Counted from the whole stretch's first letter, positions 1 through 50,693 are shown. The stretch: 63,572 bases of DNA, filler included, from Licmophora abbreviata (GCA_900291995.1; 21 parts of 21 records of this genome joined end to end with filler, not necessarily neighbours in it), one strand, 5' to 3'. The notes: generated by a model from the sequence alone, not told the origin. Program-made: numbers and translations.

Positions 1-284
1 GCCGCATGCAGCATATTCGCTGCGTTCAACAGCATATTGAAATCCGTTGGCGTTAAGTCAGCGCCGTTGAACTCCTCAATAGCTCCATCGTAACCAGCCG
101 CGCGATAGCGTTCGCGCACAATCACCCGTGCTGTTGTTGTTTTTGCCGTTCCAGGCGGTCCCCAAAGCATTAACGGCTTGGAAGCACTGCCTGCAGCGTA
201 ACGCTGGCATTTTGCCTGCGCGGTTTGGTCCGCAAATATCAGCTCTGCAACTGTTTGCGGTTCGTACTTTTCTTCAAAATTCAT
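1..284 (-). CDS. Clamp-loader/RFC-like AAA+ ATPase, N-terminal part (runs off window)
   Basis: Own translation, not in the ORF track: MNFEEKYEPQTVAELIFADQ...KPLMLWGPPGTAKTTTARVI. RFC-box-II-like EKYxP plus Walker A; GGAGA RBS upstream. Confidence 0.75.
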   Translation of the reverse strand, partial: MNFEEKYEPQTVAELIFADQTAQAKCQRYAAGSASKPLMLWGPPGTAKTTTARVIVRERYRAAGYDGAIEEFNGADLTPTDFNMLLNAANMLHA

Positions 285-307
285 CTTATTTCTCCATTTA
301 AAAGTTA

Positions 308-340
308 AGTGCACGCAAAGCGCTCAGCTCTGCGTGCACT
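308..340. terminator. Intergenic hairpin (10-bp perfect stem)
   Basis: AGTGCACGCA-N13-TGCGTGCACT between the 251-aa gene and the ATPase gene; terminator or processing role is inferred. Confidence 0.45.
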
Positions 341-348
341 GTTTTTGC

Positions 349-1104
349 TTAAGCTTGCGCTACTGTTTCAGCTGTCAGCACCTGTGCAACAAACTGCTTC
401 ATATCTGCAGCTTTGCGCTGTTTCACTTCGTCAAGCGTGTCTTTGCTCGCAGCCTTTTTTTGCTGCTCGTCAAGCTCCTTGCCCATTACAGCAAGTGCAG
501 CGTTAACCAGCGCACGCTTGTTGCTGCCGTGCACAATCCTACCGTTGCCGCTGCCATCGCAATGCACCAGCGCCACCACGTAATCTGTGTCGTTTTCGCT
601 GTCGCTCAGCATGTAGTCTTGCAAGCCAAACGTCGCCAAAGCGTGCTCACCTGTCAGCGCATTAGCTGCAATGTCCCTGTAATCGTCAGCACTAAGCTTG
701 TTTGCTGTCTTGCTGCTTGCTGTGCGCCGCACATTTTCAATGCCGCCACGCTCAATTACAAAGTTTGTCAGCGTTTGTGCATCATCATGCTCGTCAAACC
801 ACACCTTCAGCACACTTGCATATGCATGCTCTCTGTTGCGCTCTTGTCCAAAAACAACACGCACAATTTTAAGCGCCAAGCTTGTGCCTTTGTTAAACTT
901 AACGCCCAGCTCTTCCGCTAGCGCATTAAACGCACGTGCGTGTGTTTTGTCTTCCTTAAGCTGTGCGTAAATGCCAGCGCACTGTTCCAAAATTGCGTAC
1001 AGCTCCGCGTTTGCTTGCTTGTAAACACCGTTTTCCCAGTGCTCGCGCTGTGCCACAAGTTCGTGCAGTGTCGCGCTAAGTGTAGTTTTAAAGTTTGTAG
1101 TCAT
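349..1104 (-). CDS. Hypothetical 251-aa protein, proline-free, element core gene
   Basis: Long ORF with AAAGGA RBS; helical-looking sequence with FVIERGGIENVRR; coding strand lacks TC and CC. Confidence 0.85.
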   Translation of the reverse strand: MTTNFKTTLSATLHELVAQREHWENGVYKQANAELYAILEQCAGIYAQLKEDKTHARAFNALAEELGVKFNKGTSLALKIVRVVFGQERNREHAYASVLKVWFDEHDDAQTLTNFVIERGGIENVRRTASSKTANKLSADDYRDIAANALTGEHALATFGLQDYMLSDSENDTDYVVALVHCDGSGNGRIVHGSNKRALVNAALAVMGKELDEQQKKAASKDTLDEVKQRKAADMKQFVAQVLTAETVAQA

Positions 1105-1191
1105 TTTAGTTCCTTTCTAGGTTTAAATTCGACGCAACACTGCGTTGCGCCGATGCAAGGAATGTGCCGCAGAGCATTGCACTTTGCTCTT

Positions 1192-1528: not shown

Positions 1529-2323
1529 ATGTACGAAGACTTTTTTCGTAGGCGTGGTCGGAAAGTTTTGTTCTTCCGCTACGCACCCCCGATGCCGGGT
1601 CGGGAGGTGTCAGATGACATCTCGACAGCAAAGCAACCAAACCCACCCTATCCTGGTGCGCCGGGCTGGCGGTGCAGCGTCTATTATTATTGGTGGCGTT
1701 TTCTGAGGGAAAATTCTGACTTTGAAACCGTTGTCAGGTCCGGCAAAGCGATTGTACCCGACACCGTAGCTTATGATTTTCGTCACGTTTTCAACTCGAA
1801 CTTCAGGGTTTGGTGGGCACATCATGGGCGCTGGCTATTCTGCGAGCCACCCCGTGATCGTTTGCGAGTGGAAGACCCGCCTGTGTTTGACGATGATCCG
1901 ACGCGATTGCTGCTGTCGATCCCCGCAAGTGCAAATTTGGAAACAACGCTTTCTGATTTGCGCACGATCTTGCAGCCGATATTGGCGCAAAACAAAGCCG
2001 CAGCTGGCGGCAGCAAAGCGCGATACCCGGTGTGGACCAAGCCCGTTGTCACATCATTGCATCAGCACTTGCATGTTTGGGAGGTACATCGACAAAATCC
2101 CGATCTGAATTTCATTCAGTTGGCCGACGCTGTGGGTATCTTGCGGGGCGAGGACGATAGCTTGGAGACCAGAAATAAAAAGTCAGCCATCACCAGCCGT
2201 TTGGTGAAACAATCCAAGTTCATGATTGAGCAGGTGGCGTATGGCCGCTTTCCCGTTATGAACAATCAACAGCTTGAAGCTGGTATCAAGAAGTTCAAGT
2301 CTTTGCCTGATCGCAGATGGTAA
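1529..2323 (+). CDS. Putative FseA-like (DUF6499+DUF2285-like) transcriptional activator
   Basis: YYWWRFLRENSDF resembles the DUF6499 AWEFLRRN motif; C-terminal HTH-like LHVWE...FIQLADAVG...SRLVKQSKFMI...GRFP resembles DUF2285. Confidence 0.55.
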   Translation: MYEDFFRRRGRKVLFFRYAPPMPGREVSDDISTAKQPNPPYPGAPGWRCSVYYYWWRFLRENSDFETVVRSGKAIVPDTVAYDFRHVFNSNFRVWWAHHGRWLFCEPPRDRLRVEDPPVFDDDPTRLLLSIPASANLETTLSDLRTILQPILAQNKAAAGGSKARYPVWTKPVVTSLHQHLHVWEVHRQNPDLNFIQLADAVGILRGEDDSLETRNKKSAITSRLVKQSKFMIEQVAYGRFPVMNNQQLEAGIKKFKSLPDRRW

Positions 2324-3814: not shown

Positions 3815-6400
3815 CTATTCTTGGGGTATGGTTTCGATCAGAGCAGTTTTTGTATCAGACCAAAGCACTGATACGAAAGCAACTTCTTCCAATGATACCT
3901 CAGCGCCCGCTTTTATCGTCTGTTCAAGCTCGGCCATTGCCCTTGAAATTTTCACACAACCAAGGTTGGCAGAGCTCCCCTTTAATCGGTGCGCACTAGT
4001 TGCGGCTTCTGTATAATCATCTTCGCTAATATACCTTTCGATTTCGCAAACAATGATATCGCCGTTTGCAATAAAAGTTTCCAAAAGTCGGGAGAAGTCT
4101 TCACTCTTGAACATTGAGCGCAAAGGACCAAGTCGCTCCATGTCAATTAGACTAATGTCTTCTGCCTCTACTGGACTGAGGTCACCTGTTTCTTTGTTTT
4201 CTTTTTCAACAGGAGCCTCAAAAGGATGGTGCCCTTTAGAAGAAGTCAGCTTAGAGGAGATTTTGATTATCAAGCTATCGCGATTGGTAGGCTTTTCTAT
4301 GAACCCATCCATGCCTACACCTTTAGCGTTATCTTTGAATTCTTTTAAAACATTACCAGAGACTGCCATAATTAGGCTTGGTGCAATGCCACTTTGAGAT
4401 TCCAGCTTGCGGATCCTTTTTGTTGCCTCAAAACCATCCATATTGGGCATGGAAATATCCATCAGGACCACTTCTGGCTTGTAATTGGTAAACACTTCAA
4501 GCGCTTCAACGCCATCATTGGCAACTCGTAATATCGCACCGGTTGGCTGCAGCTGTTGCGATAAGACTCTTAGGTTCACCTCATGATCGTCCACCAATAA
4601 AAACTTTACACCATCGAAAACTTTTTGTTCCGGTGACAACATTTCACCATCGTTCAAGTGCTCCGCTTCACGATGGTCGGTCAAAGTATCATAAAGGGCT
4701 TTCGCCAGCATTTTGGGCCGCAAAGGCTTAGACACGATAGATGTGTGATCTTTATTGGTTGCTAAAAGTTCTTGGATATCTCCCCGCATCGACCCCATAA
4801 AAATAACTGAAGTGTTTTCGATTAGTGGATTGGAATAAATTTTATCAATCAGGGACTCATTGCGCAACTTAGGCATTTGAGATGCTAGAAGCAGTATATC
4901 GTAACGTTCTTCCGATGCAGCTGCAGCTTCGAGCAATGGCAGGATCTTCTCCCACCGGTTAGCTGTATCATAGTAGATACCCCACCATGATAAATGCTTT
5001 GAAGCAATCGCAATACTGGCTTGGCAATTGTCTACCAATAAAACCTTGAAAGGGCGGTTCTCTGTTAACGATTTGAGCGCTGTGTATTCCTCGGGGAAGT
5101 CGCTGACTGCCCCACACTGAAATAGAACTCTGCATGTAAATTTCGACCCATTGCCGAGGGAGGAAGCCGCAGTCAGCTCACCACTCATCATTCGGACAAG
5201 CTCTTGAGAAATCGTTAGCCCCAGGCCAGTGCCACCATATTTTCTGGTCGTACTTTCGTTCACTTGGTTAAACGGTTTGAAAATCGCTTCGAATGCATCT
5301 GCCGATATGCCTATGCCAGTGTCAGCGACACTGCAGTAAACTTCCGAACAGCCATCCTGGGGTACGAGCCTAACTTCTAGCGTTACAGCTCCCTTGCTCG
5401 TGAACTTAATGGCGTTGCTTAAAAGGTTCAGCAATACTTGCCTAAAGCGTGCACCATCACCGAAGAGATTATATTCAAGGTGTGTAGGACAATTGACCAA
5501 CAACTCTATGCCTTTTCCGGCAGCATTAAGCTCGACCATACTGACTGTGTCAAAAATTAAATCAATGAGGTCAAATTCTTCATTGTTAAGCTTGATTCCC
5601 GTCGCGTCGATCTGTGCAAAGTCCAGGATGTCTTCGATGATTAACTTGAGTGCGTTGCCTGAGTTCGTGATGGTATTTACGCACTCACGTTGACTGATGG
5701 TAAGGTTGGTCTCTCTGAGAAACTCAGCGTTACCTAAGACGCCATGTAAAGGAGTGCGGAGCTCATGACTCATATTTGCAAGAAAACGAGTTTTCGAAGA
5801 ATTTGCGTCTTCAGCCACATCGCGTGCGTGAACGATGTCCTTGATCAAAGCTTTTAGTGGTCTTCCGACGATTGCTCGAAAAGCAAACCAACTAGAAAGA
5901 ATTGAGGCCAGAAGGCTGAGAGCCAGAACAGTGATGGAGTTGCGTATTTGGGACTGACGTATCTGTGATACTTGTTCAGTGCTGAACCCAACGCGGAGTG
6001 TTGCCCAATCAGCGGCATTAAGTTGAACCTCAAGCCAATCGTCTACGTCAGCAAATTTGCAACCTATCATTGAAGGCGCCGAAAAATCGGGGACTTCAAC
6101 ACCGTTACGTGAAAGTGTTGCGCATTTGATCGATTGATTGCCAAGCAGAAGCTGTAAAAGCTGATTAGTGATATCATTTTTTGCATTCTGATCGAGGTTG
6201 GGGTTTTCTAATACGCCTTCAATCGACCCGGCAGTGCGGGCAACTGTGTTTCCAAGGCGTGTCGAAAAGTTATCGCGAGCGTCAAAAAAGCGCTCACTGT
6301 ATACGAAGTAGAGTGCAAGTGTGGACAACAGGAGAAAGATGGGGGTTGTAAACAGTAACAGCTTCGCAAAAAGAACAGTTGGTTGCGGCAGCTGGAGCAA
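3815..6400 (-). CDS. Hybrid sensor histidine kinase (2 TM, HisKA, HATPase, two REC, Hpt)
   Basis: FLANMSHELRTP, NLLSNAIKFT, DTGIG, GGTGLGL, VLMDISMP, AHRLKGSSANLG. Confidence 0.95.
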   Translation of the reverse strand: MLQLPQPTVLFAKLLLFTTPIFLLLSTLALYFVYSERFFDARDNFSTRLGNTVARTAGSIEGVLENPNLDQNAKNDITNQLLQLLLGNQSIKCATLSRNGVEVPDFSAPSMIGCKFADVDDWLEVQLNAADWATLRVGFSTEQVSQIRQSQIRNSITVLALSLLASILSSWFAFRAIVGRPLKALIKDIVHARDVAEDANSSKTRFLANMSHELRTPLHGVLGNAEFLRETNLTISQRECVNTITNSGNALKLIIEDILDFAQIDATGIKLNNEEFDLIDLIFDTVSMVELNAAGKGIELLVNCPTHLEYNLFGDGARFRQVLLNLLSNAIKFTSKGAVTLEVRLVPQDGCSEVYCSVADTGIGISADAFEAIFKPFNQVNESTTRKYGGTGLGLTISQELVRMMSGELTAASSLGNGSKFTCRVLFQCGAVSDFPEEYTALKSLTENRPFKVLLVDNCQASIAIASKHLSWWGIYYDTANRWEKILPLLEAAAASEERYDILLLASQMPKLRNESLIDKIYSNPLIENTSVIFMGSMRGDIQELLATNKDHTSIVSKPLRPKMLAKALYDTLTDHREAEHLNDGEMLSPEQKVFDGVKFLLVDDHEVNLRVLSQQLQPTGAILRVANDGVEALEVFTNYKPEVVLMDISMPNMDGFEATKRIRKLESQSGIAPSLIMAVSGNVLKEFKDNAKGVGMDGFIEKPTNRDSLIIKISSKLTSSKGHHPFEAPVEKENKETGDLSPVEAEDISLIDMERLGPLRSMFKSEDFSRLLETFIANGDIIVCEIERYISEDDYTEAATSAHRLKGSSANLGCVKISRAMAELEQTIKAGAEVSLEEVAFVSVLWSDTKTALIETIPQE

Positions 6401-27713: not shown

Positions 27714-30012
27714 TTGGAGCCGCCGCCGCCCGTGTCACCCTCAGGTCCGGATTTTTTCGCCGAAGGCGATCTGGTGGGCGTGCTCACCACCCAGCCGCTC
27801 GACCGGCTGCTGGATTACCGCGCGCCCGAAGGTGGCTGCCATGTCGGCGCCTTCGTCGAGGTGCCGCTGGGGCCGCGCAAGGTGCCGGGGGTGGTCTGGG
27901 GGCCGGGGCGCGGGGATTTCGACATCTCCAAGGTCCGGCAGGTGCTGCGCGTGCTCGACGTGGCACCGATGCGCGCCGAGATGCAGGACTTCCTGCGCCG
28001 CGCCGCCGACTATACCCTGACGCCGATGCCTGCCATGCTGCGGCTCGCCACCCGCGCGCCGGGCCTGTCGAACCCGCCCTCGATGCAGAAGATCTACCGC
28101 TCGGGGCCCGCCGCGCCCGACCGCATGACCGATGCGCGCCGCCGGGTGCTGGCCGTGCTGTCCGAGTATGGCGCGCTCTCGTTCACCCTGGGCGAGCTGG
28201 CCGAGCAGGCGGGCGTCACCACATCCGTTATCAAGGGGCTCGTCAAGCAAGGCGCCGTGCTGGAAGAGGACTGCCCCCGCGATCTGCCCTTTCCGCATCT
28301 TGATCCGGCGCTNNNNNNNNNNNNNNNNNNNNNNNNNNNNNNNNNNNNNNNNNNNNTTAATTAATTAANNNNNNNNNNNNNNNNNNNNNNNNNNNNNNNN
28401 NNNNNNNNNNNNCGATCAGTCCAGCGCCGCCGCCACGCTCTGCGCGGCGCTTCGCGGCGGTGGCTATGGCACGACGCTTTTGCGCGGCGTCACCGGGTCG
28501 GGCAAGACCGAGGTCTATCTCGAAGCCGTGGCCGAAACCCTGCGGCAGGGGCGTCAGGCGCTGGTCCTGCTGCCCGAGATCGCGCTGACCTCGGAATTCC
28601 TCACCCGGATCGAGGCGCGCTTCGGCGCGCGCCCCGCCGAATGGCATTCGGGCGTCACGATGACTGAACGCCGCCGCACATGGAAAATGCTGGGTGAGGG
28701 GGGGTGTCAGGTTGTCGTCGGCGCGCGCTCGGCGCTGTTCCTGCCGTTCCGCGATCTGGGGCTGATCGTGGTCGATGAGGAACACGACACCTCCTACAAG
28801 CAGGAAGACGGCGTGCTCTATAATGCGCGCGACATGGCCGTTCTACGGGCCTCGATCTGTGGGGCGCAGGTGGTGCTGGCCTCGGCCACCCCGTCGCTCG
28901 AAAGCTGGGCCAATGCCGAGGCCGGGAAATACACGCGGCTTGACCTGACTGCGCGGTTCGGCGCGGCGGTCATGCCGCAGATGCGCGCCATCGATATGCG
29001 CGCCAAGACGCTCCCCGCCAGCCGCTGGATCTCGCCCAGCCTTCAGGCCGCTGTCACCGCGCGCGTCGAAGTCGGCGAACAGGCGCTCTTGTTCATCAAC
29101 CGCCGGGGCTATGCGCCGGTGACGCTGTGCCGGGCCTGCGGGCATCAGATCGGCTGCGATCATTGCGATGCGCGCATGGTCGAACACCGCTTTCAGCAAC
29201 GCCTCGTCTGCCACCAATGCGGCGAGACGAAAGCCGTGCCCAAGGCCTGCCCCTCCTGTGGCGTCGAAGACAAGCTGGCCGCCGTTGGCCCCGGTGTCGA
29301 GCGTCTGACCGAAGAGGCGCAGGCGCTGTTCCCGCAGGCCCGCATCGCCACGCTCAGTTCCGATCTCTTCGGCTCGGCCCGCGCCCTCAAGGAACAGATC
29401 CGCGCCATTGCCGAAGGCGATACCGACATCGTCATCGGCACGCAGCTTGTTGCCAAGGGGCATAATTTCCCGCGCCTCACGCTGGTCGGCGTGATCGACG
29501 CCGATCTGGGCCTGCAAGGCTCGGATCTGCGCGCGGCCGAACGCACGTTTCAACTGATGCGGCAGGTGGCGGGCCGCGCCGGGCGCACCGAAAAGCCGGG
29601 CACGGCGCTGTTGCAGACCTTTCAGCCCGAACACCCGGTGATCCGTGCGATCCTGTCGGGCGACGAGGAAGGCTTCTGGCGCGCCGAGGCCGAGGAACGC
29701 CGCCATGCGGGCGTGCCGCCCTATGGGCGCATGGCGGGCATCATCCTGTCCTCCACCGATGCGCGCGAGGTGTTCGATTTCGCCACCGAGCTTGCCCGCC
29801 GGGATGGGCCTCTGCGGGCCGTGGGCGCGCAGGTCTTCGGCCCGGCGCCTGCGCCCATCGCGCGCATTCGCGGGCGGCACCGGGTGCGGCTTCTGGTCAA
29901 GGCGGCACGGGGCGTGGCGCTTCAGGGGGCCGTGGCGCAATGGGTGGCGCAGCTCAAGCCGCCGGGACAGCTGCGCCTGAGCATCGACATCGACCCGCAA
30001 AGCTTCCTATGA
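27714..30012 (+). CDS. priA: Primosomal protein N' (split by gap)
   Basis: [20 protein letters not shown], CxxC cluster, IDIDPQSFL. Confidence 0.96.
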
Positions 30013-49024: not shown

Positions 49025-49246
49025 TCGCCTGACCTGGGCCTGTTCGCCGCGGGCTTGACCCTGCTGCCTGCCCGCCGGTTGCCGCTGATTTCCTTCTGTC
49101 GCGCGCTGTTTCCGATCAGAAACGGCGCTGCGACAGCCCGCCGCAACAGCTACCGGATATGTCGGAATCGCGTGCTGTATACTGTCGCAGACGAGCTAAG
49201 AGCGACGGGAAAGCATCACCGCCTTTGGCCACCACGAGGAAATAAA

Positions 49247-50693
49247 ATGAGCTACAAGTCCGACATCGAAATCGCCCGTGAAGCCAACAAGAAGCCGATT
49301 CAGGAAATCGGCGAGAAGCTTGGCATCCCAAGCGATCACCTGCTGCCCTACGGCCATGACAAGGCCAAGGTCAGCCAGGACTTCATCAACTCGGTAAAAG
49401 GCAACAAGAACGGCAAACTGGTTCTCGTGACGGCGATCAACCCGACGCCGGCCGGCGAAGGCAAGACCACGACCACTGTGGGTCTGGGAGATGGCCTGAA
49501 CCGGATCGGCAAGAAAGCGGCAGTCTGTATTCGCGAGGCAAGCCTTGGCCCGTGCTTCGGCATGAAGGGCGGCGCGGCCGGCGGCGGCTATGCGCAGGTG
49601 GTTCCGATGGAGGAAATGAACCTGCATTTCACCGGGGATTTCCACGCGATCACCACGGCTCACAACCTGCTGAGCGCGATGATCGACAACCACATCTACT
49701 GGGGCAACGAGCTGGGTATTGACGAGCGNNNNNNNNNNNNNNNNNNNNNNNNNNNNNNNNNNNNNNNNNNNNTTAATTAATTAANNNNNNNNNNNNNNNN
49801 NNNNNNNNNNNNNNNNNNNNNNNNNNNNCGGTCCGTTCGCAAATATCGCGCATGGCTGCAACTCGGTCATGGCGACGACAACGGCACTGAAACTGGCCGA
49901 CTACGTCGTGACCGAAGCAGGCTTCGGGGCGGATCTGGGCGCCGAGAAATTCATGAACATCAAGTGTCGCAAGGCCGGGCTTGCGCCATCCGTGGTGGTG
50001 GTTGTGGCGACCGTGCGCGCGATGAAGATGAACGGCGGTGTGGCCAAGGCCGATCTGGGCGCGGAGAATGTCGAGGCGGTCAAGAAGGGTTGCCCGAACC
50101 TTGGCCGCCATATCGAGAACGTCAAATCCTTCGGCGTGCCGGTGGTTGTGGCGATCAACCATTTCGTGACCGATACCGATGCCGAAGTGCAGGCCGTTAA
50201 GGATTACGTGGCCGAACAGGGCTCAGAGGCTATCCTTTGCCAACACTGGGCCAAAGGGTCGGAAGGCACCGAGGAGCTGGCGACCCGCGTGGCCGCCATT
50301 GCCGAGGCCGATCAGGCGAATTTTGCCCCGCTTTATCCCGATGACATGCCGCTGCTACAAAAGGCCGAGACCATCGCCAAGCGGATTTATCGCGCCGATG
50401 AGGTGCTGGCCGATCAGAAGATCCGCAACCAGCTCAAGGAATGGGAAGATGCAGGCTATGGCAATCTGCCTGTTTGCATGGCCAAGACACAATACAGCTT
50501 CACCACCGATCCGGGACGTCGTGGCGCGCCCACGGGCCACTCGGTGCCGATCCGCGAAGTTCGTCTGAGTGCGGGTGCGGGTTTCGTCATCGTGATCTGT
50601 GGTGAGATCATGACCATGCCCGGCCTGCCCAGCAAACCGGCGGCCGAGGCCATCAAGCTGAACGCTGATGGCGATATCGAGGGCCTGTTCTAA
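49247..50693 (+). CDS. fhs: Formate-tetrahydrofolate ligase (split by gap)
   Basis: [35 protein letters not shown]. Confidence 0.98.

Follow-up and report, generated by a model that had tools for sequence, protein, structure and literature searches.

The beginning of the window (by which we mean the whole stretch of DNA that was analysed, 63,572 nt) carries the gene of a 251-residue protein, P0001, and the features surrounding it (Table 1). These belong to a conserved small integrative element of Rhodobacteraceae, which comprises a DUF6626 gene, a gene of 265-317 aa without family, a divergent control region and the P0001 gene, the latter being the first gene on one side of the control region. 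Beyond the P0001 gene, the order continues with the clamp-loader-like AAA ATPase gene, a 77-aa gene, a gene of ~145 aa, DUF3768 and, further on, an integrase. No mention of DUF3768 was found in the literature search.

Table 1. Features at the start of the window, with the basis of each assignment.
Feature	Position	Strand	Basis
YC-free stretch, no TC/CC on the message strand, 861 nt	260..1120	-	sequence counts, shuffles
251-aa ORF P0001, no Pfam/PHROG/NCBIfam family	349..1104	-	ORF call, profile searches
Ribosome-binding site AAAGGAA, kept in relatives	1110..1116	-	sequence, comparison of relatives
Conserved terminator-like hairpin with U-rich tail, separating the ORF from the ATPase gene	308..340	-	comparison of relatives
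Clamp-loader-like AAA ATPase gene, 5' part, cut by the window start	3..284	-	profile searches
Conserved inverted repeat, 5' leader or operator, contains YC, outside the ban	1131..1151	-	comparison of relatives
264-aa gene, no family, divergently transcribed, position kept in related elements	1529..2323	+	profile searches
DUF6626 gene, conserved member of the same element as P0001	2466..2813	+	profile searches

Several other observations concern the element and the window as such. The control region is duplicated in tandem (1151-1359 and 1410-1616, period about 258 bp), and the duplication takes in some 29 codons from the beginning of the 264-aa gene, with blocks of 87 nt and 50 nt that are 90% and 82% identical, respectively, and the upstream copy terminates in a short truncated ORF. 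A hybrid histidine kinase with receiver and Hpt domains (3818-6400, minus strand, GC 0.45) adjoins the element, and the element or an island may extend as far as this gene. The first 8 kb of the window are low in GC, and the remainder has a GC of about 0.6. Positions 1-1600 were found complete in sequencing runs labelled as at least five organisms; either the identical element may be present in several strains or species, or the run labels may overlap. Further into the window, PriA is encoded in adjacent ORFs, with its 3' DNA-binding domain apart from the helicase part (27714-30009), and formate-tetrahydrofolate ligase is encoded as two halves in adjacent ORFs (49055-50690). These splits may be frameshifts, pseudogenes or assembly errors.

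Throughout the YC-free stretch, neither GA nor GG occurs on the plus strand, so that the minus strand, which is the message strand, contains no TC and no CC (together, YC). The earlier note on this DNA had counted by hand about 173 G on the plus strand between 261 and 1119, all preceding C or T; the exact count is indeed 173, with C as the next base in 105 cases, T in 68 and a purine in none. As the plus strand of this segment still has 61 TC and 40 CC, the ban is confined to one strand, as had been claimed. The runner-up YC-free runs in the window measure 139 nt on the plus strand and 135 nt on the minus strand. Mononucleotide shuffles of the segment (n = 2000) gave 70.1 ± 5.9 GA/GG, with a minimum of 48, where the segment itself has none, and, with the per-base YC rate set at 0.09 to 0.159, the chance of zero YC over 860 nt is 6e-36 to 2e-65.

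Codon counts bore out what had been noted of the protein: the P0001 ORF has no Pro, encodes Ser by AGY only (11 codons) and Phe by TTT only (8 codons), and contains no NTC or NCC codon. When synonymous codons were permuted inside the ORF (n = 10,000), codon junctions had 12.0 ± 2.1 YC, with a minimum of 5, as against the observed 0. The junction rule thus exceeds the effect of codon choice, which agrees with the earlier view that a rule obeyed by codon junctions and by non-coding DNA is not codon bias. Redrawing the codons for the P0001 protein from three background usages (5000 draws each) yielded 42-82 YC, with a minimum of 23. Neither the composition shuffles nor the synonymous-codon shuffles ever reached 0 YC.

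The ban covers one unit, consisting of the ribosome site, the 251-aa ORF, the hairpin and the first ATPase codons. Before the P0001 ORF, the window has its last YC at -17 relative to the ATG; across the loci compared, the ban begins 16-36 nt 5' of the ATG. Its edge is immediately 5' of the ribosome site (AAAGGA). At the other end, it reaches 65-95 nt beyond the stop codon, as far as the conserved Pro in the EKYEP motif of the ATPase, whose codon provides the first YC of the ATPase gene in the window after seven YC-free codons. The mean profile of 11 loci has an abrupt 5' edge, and on the 3' side the return of YC is gradual and extends over about 600 nt. The partial depletion of the ATPase gene described earlier was exact as counted: a purine follows G at 13 of the 66 G of the fragment present in the window, and 5 of these 13 sites are within Pro codons.

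The hairpin located 3' of the ORF comprises 11 pairs, of which four show compensatory changes. At the pair where a G-C would create a UC, five sequences have G.U and five have A-U, and G-C is present only in the relaxed L002 locus. Upstream of the ribosome site, the leader contains an inverted repeat that is conserved, a candidate -10 word and 3-4 remaining YC; transcription of the P0001 gene would presumably start in this region.

With regard to the function of P0001, searches against Pfam, PHROGs and NCBIfam gave no usable match, and the PADLOC rows pointing to Cas10 were weak (19 bits) and were taken as chance. The AlphaFold2 model (pLDDT 78.5) predicts a mainly helical protein with one beta hairpin. 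This model had no match at E <= 0.001 in Foldseek searches against PDB and BFVD, and only generic helical matches (Z <= 6.2) in a wide structural search. In the protein atlas, P0001 falls in unnamed clusters only, and tblastn searches of a plasmid collection, a phage collection and viral contigs gave no match.

Relatives of P0001 are numerous (61 at 53-87% identity), and the majority of them are without Pro. We compared the DNA of 49 loci (L001-L049) from Rhodobacteraceae genomes and from marine and saline metagenomes. Fourteen of them have a protein identity of at least 54%, namely 11 YC-free loci, L002, L017 and L018. The 11 YC-free loci (54-88% protein identity) have 0-3 YC in the matched part, where about 16-65 would be expected by length, so the absence of TC/CC and of Pro holds well beyond the window. 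L002 and L017 have 11-12 YC in the matched part, L018 has 75 (77 in the tree set) and 3 Pro, and the 35 more distant loci have 16-86. The family gene is absent from G001, the genome nearest to the window.

On the tree, the YC-free genes form a clade of 14 rows with a support of 100/100. L018 is nested in this clade on a long branch, and L002/L017 are likewise on a long branch. This placement indicates that the ancestor of the clade was YC-free, from which it follows on this tree that the ban was lost once (L018) and loosened once (L002/L017). The deep YC-free lineages have a nucleotide identity of 65-70%, with up to 256 differences and up to 35% divergence; pairwise dS is about 0.8-1.7 (about 1) and dN/dS is 0.15-0.36. 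These values argue that synonymous sites have fully turned over without YC having been regained, and that the protein is under purifying selection. The protein is intact and shows 44 invariant columns.

Outside this clade, 7 of 401 Rhodobacteraceae genomes have distant family members, mostly with normal YC, and two of these members are depleted. L119 (124-972) has no Pro in 282 aa and 11 YC in the matched 408 nt (27 YC/kb); its whole open frame (849 nt) has about 32 YC (about 38/kb), with YC-free stretches of 100-160 nt. L124 (1432-2193) has 33 YC in 663 nt. Hence the pressure on YC seems to recur in the family at differing strengths, L119 and L124 being partly depleted. In addition, three genomes (G237, G377 and G200) have 2-4 copies of the family gene each, so such elements can sit several times in one chromosome.

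The composition of the YC-free genes shows how the pattern was achieved. In the 11 YC-free genes, the observed/expected ratio is 0.00 for CC and 0.02 for TC, versus 0.55 and 0.93 in the sister clade; the other ratios are 1.14 for CT, 1.58 for TT, 1.36 for AC and 2.03 for GC. At four-fold sites after a pyrimidine, C is found in 0 of 880 cases, versus a share of 0.23 in the sister clade. The share of T is the same in both groups (0.27 versus 0.26), and it is A and G that were gained. Following a purine, the third position favours C (0.47). Of the NRY codons, 439 have C and 148 have T at their end; for NTY codons the counts are 3 with C and 174 with T. Of 443 codons starting with C, 440 follow a purine and only 3 a pyrimidine. 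The 11 proteins together have no Pro, and their Ser residues are encoded by TCN once and by AGY 101 times. Dipeptides that force a YC ([DNYHCFS][QHP]) are absent from these proteins and occur 8 times in L018, which also has 11 TCN-Ser. The amino-acid sequence itself is thus shaped by the ban. Pyrimidines still make up 40% of the YC-free gene, and the antisense strand of these genes has 106-117 YC/kb.

The earlier note had left a choice between selection to escape a YC-specific agent and saturation of the exposed non-template strand by C>T mutation. A burst of such mutation, or its continuation, in the absence of selection would leave a neutral scar in the direction observed, as deaminase and UV mutagenesis run YC>YT. 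However, such a scar would hardly persist through a dS of about 1 and up to 35% divergence at a dN/dS of 0.2-0.3 in a protein that remains intact at its invariant columns. It would also have produced an excess of T, which is missing: purines took the place of the lost C, NRY codons favour C, and Ser is kept as AGY, which C>T changes cannot reach. We therefore consider the neutral explanation extremely improbable. The pattern is better described as avoidance of YC than as decay, and the survival of the ban down to 54% protein identity at saturated synonymous sites, together with its loss in one nested lineage, speaks for the selective alternative. The ban is selected, old and gene-specific, and is no mutational scar.

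The specificity of the ban is apparent from its surroundings. In a test for an APOBEC-type spread of the depletion, only the P0001 gene was YC-free, its neighbours having 52-150 YC/kb on the message strand. The ATPase gene that follows a YC-free gene has 52-98 YC/kb, with the lowest density in the first 300 nt; the corresponding value is 125 for L018 and 95-122 for the sister clade. Across 1,170,119 bases (about 35%) of the carrier genome G002, YC-free runs on the two strands reach 100 nt at most, and the equally long runs in unrelated genes that would have spoken against the earlier claim are not found there. Outside the family gene, the longest run on either strand of loci L001-L049 (288,858 bases) is 149 nt. 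Within the sampled DNA, the ban is specific to the P0001 gene.

Among the agents that could read YC, we tentatively favour the termination factor Rho, although we hold this reading of the P0001 unit, as an extreme and gene-specific case of Rho avoidance, with somewhat less than even confidence. The primary binding clefts of Rho are described as binding 5'-YC (PMC12360218), and Rho is described as recognising up to six CC/UC dinucleotides, its avoidance driving the purine bias of the coding strand (PMC13323073). If this applies here, the P0001 transcript would have to stay invisible to Rho. Each of the six primary clefts takes one 5'-YC of single-stranded RNA, and an RNA without YC and with more G than C would offer Rho no grip. 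Transcription of the unit, with read-through into the partly depleted ATPase gene, could then proceed independently of close ribosome coupling. As Rho associates with the degradosome in Rhodobacter capsulatus, according to a work cited in PMC12360218, a YC-free message might also be spared that decay route. We infer Rho as the reader of YC, a fitness cost of each single YC through the binding energy it adds, and likewise the reason why this gene in particular would be exposed.

Several observations are consistent with Rho avoidance. The banned words are exactly the ligand of Rho, they are depleted on the message strand alone, and the lost C was replaced by purines and not by T. The pressure is graded, both in the ATPase gene and in other lineages of the family, as would be predicted for a reader that acts by avidity. 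Windows of 78 nt with C>G bubbles amount to 0-12% in the 11 YC-free genes versus 17-53% in 27 sister genes, so such bubbles are nearly absent from the former; in PMC6144790, 28 of 32 regions without C>G bubbles showed no Rho termination in vitro. Rho itself is encoded in G001, G002 and G003 (PF07497 above cut-off). Residues 5-422 of the Rho of the carrier host G002 align to solved Rho chains with an E value of 2.6e-188, and its RNA-binding segments DGFGFLR, PDDIYVS and ERYFAL are identical to those of the solved chains.

Other observations fit this reading less well. Rho is thought to require several YC within about 60-80 nt, and a lone YC should therefore be nearly harmless; yet only 8 YC are left across the 11 YC-free genes at a dS of about 1, which means that selection acts on single sites. 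This could be reconciled with Rho only if the RNA were often naked and every YC contributed appreciably to the binding energy. Moreover, the ban holds in the stable hairpin and at the far end of the unit, where Rho loading should matter little, whereas the presumed 5' leader retains YC. Finally, coupling of transcription and translation is predicted for Pseudomonadota (PMC13323073), and the exposure of this one gene would need a reason of its own. Because of these weak points, an agent for which one hit suffices stays a rival, with RNA or the displaced non-template DNA strand as its target. An undescribed nuclease or modifier of this kind, reading YC site by site and active when mobile elements are switched on or when phages infect marine bacteria, is less likely than not. 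If it existed, the island would have adopted a YC-free spelling, and paid for it with the loss of proline, so as to function while this agent is present.

If the agent acted on RNA, it would be a YC-specific endoribonuclease or RNA-modifying enzyme of the host, the element or a phage, and the P0001 message would stay intact and translatable while others are destroyed, as ACA-less mRNAs do in the presence of MazF. This is a doubtful yet serious candidate. It accounts directly for selection on single sites and for the extent of the ban, which takes in everything between the ribosome site and the 3' hairpin, both included, that is, the part needed whole for a stable, translatable mRNA, and leaves YC in the leader. 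On the other hand, we know of no described RNase with YC specificity, and no second YC-free gene was present within the 1.17 Mb of the carrier genome. The partial depletion of the ATPase gene, with at least 40 sites left, would be useless against an efficient cutter, and the stable stem obeys the ban although it would be out of reach for a single-strand-specific enzyme. For a deaminase, RNase or ADP-ribosyltransferase, as looked for at the suggestion of the earlier note, searches with Pfam, PADLOC and NCBIfam gave no domain among 30 neighbouring proteins, 15 from the element and 47 from the window; several of these are without family and might hide one. One locus (L014, 8305-8962) has a Phd/YefM-type antitoxin gene beside a 146-aa gene without family, near the integrase; this pair is not conserved elsewhere.

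A DNA-level agent, such as a YC-specific cytidine deaminase or a dC-specific ssDNA endonuclease acting on the exposed non-template strand, would account for the restriction to one strand, the limits of the unit, the weaker effect past the terminator and the indifference of the ban to RNA structure. Known enzymes have suitable specificities, as APOBEC3 enzymes prefer TC and CC contexts and phage T4 endonuclease IV cleaves before dC. However, the same scan detected no deaminase or nuclease domain in the neighbours, and the T share at four-fold sites lacks the excess of product that a deaminase would leave. Selection against mutability is second-order and usually leads to partial depletion only, the early part of the presumed transcript retains YC, and neither the element nor the sampled host DNA has a second affected gene. 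We regard this explanation as unlikely. Still less probable is a reader of the template strand, for which the rule can equally be stated as no GA and no GG, for instance if RNA polymerase were hindered by a modified G in these contexts. The G of GA and GGC is reportedly a target of 7-deazaguanine systems, but neither the 47 proteins of the window nor the scanned neighbours in the element yielded a transglycosylase or queuosine-pathway domain, and a host-wide modification would hit all genes, whereas only the P0001 gene is shaped. A similarly slim chance is given to the protection of ribosome sites: a message without UC and CC has no Watson-Crick complement to the Shine-Dalgarno sequence of P0001 or of the gene that follows, and both ribosome sites lie within the ban. 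A preprint (PMC12697547) reports that expression is reduced by anti-RBS sequences located far away. For this purpose, however, only complements of 3-4 nt need avoiding and not each isolated YC, and neither the total lack of Pro nor the purines before nearly all codons starting with C would be explained.

Four other ideas were set aside. Avoidance of UV photoproducts is at odds with a template strand rich in YC, on which lesions would block RNA polymerase, and with the enrichment of TT on the message strand. Recognition of double-stranded DNA, as in the avoidance of restriction sites or PAMs, would not respect one strand. A codon- or tRNA-level cause is at odds with junctions, non-coding spacer and hairpin all following the rule, and avoidance of CcrM/GANTC sites accounts for a small subset of the banned words only.

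Whichever agent reads YC, an entire transcription unit has stayed purged of a two-letter word for more time than synonymous sites need to saturate. This purge takes one amino acid from the protein and reshapes the stem of the terminator, and the ban is among the strongest sequence-level constraints seen apart from the genetic code. Were Rho the reader, the P0001 gene would be a natural Rho-proof gene, showing at dinucleotide resolution what Rho sees in vivo. It would also provide a recoding rule to insulate transgenes from Rho, and a pair of native and recoded genes would be suited to gauging single YC steps in termination. If Rho is not the reader, there would be an unknown YC-specific activity that mobile elements of several kinds must evade.

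With regard to known systems, the literature search returned no description of a gene-wide ban on YC or on another dinucleotide, and gave only a paper on purine bias and work on rut sites of Rho. The earlier statement that no described system explains the ban stands in so far as none describes such a gene-wide ban, and no longer holds for its recognition, as the primary site of Rho reads exactly 5'-YC. The footprints of APOBEC in viral genomes resemble the pattern in their TC/CC contexts and their restriction to one strand. They are, however, partial and genome-spanning, with an excess of TT/CT products, whereas the depletion in the P0001 gene is total, is limited to one unit and shows no excess of T. 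The ACA-less mRNAs that resist MazF share with it the absence of a short word from a whole message, implying harm from every copy of that word. In contrast to these mRNAs, the word has just two letters here, the trait is confined to one gene in the host DNA sampled, and a YC-specific nuclease is neither known nor was one found among the scanned proteins. The pattern is also related to Rho, as the avoided words UC and CC are the ligand of its primary site, and to the purine bias of Bacilli genes (PMC13323073, Nat Microbiol 2026). As described in that paper, this bias is a genome-wide statistical shift (54% versus 46% purine) found in species that have runaway transcription. Both cases show a message-strand bias against pyrimidine-rich RNA with more G than C, and the antisense strand of the P0001 gene stays YC-rich. 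The P0001 gene differs in being a single gene of a Pseudomonadota host under an absolute ban on two dinucleotides, in which pyrimidines are still common, C is preferred after purines and the amino-acid repertoire is changed.
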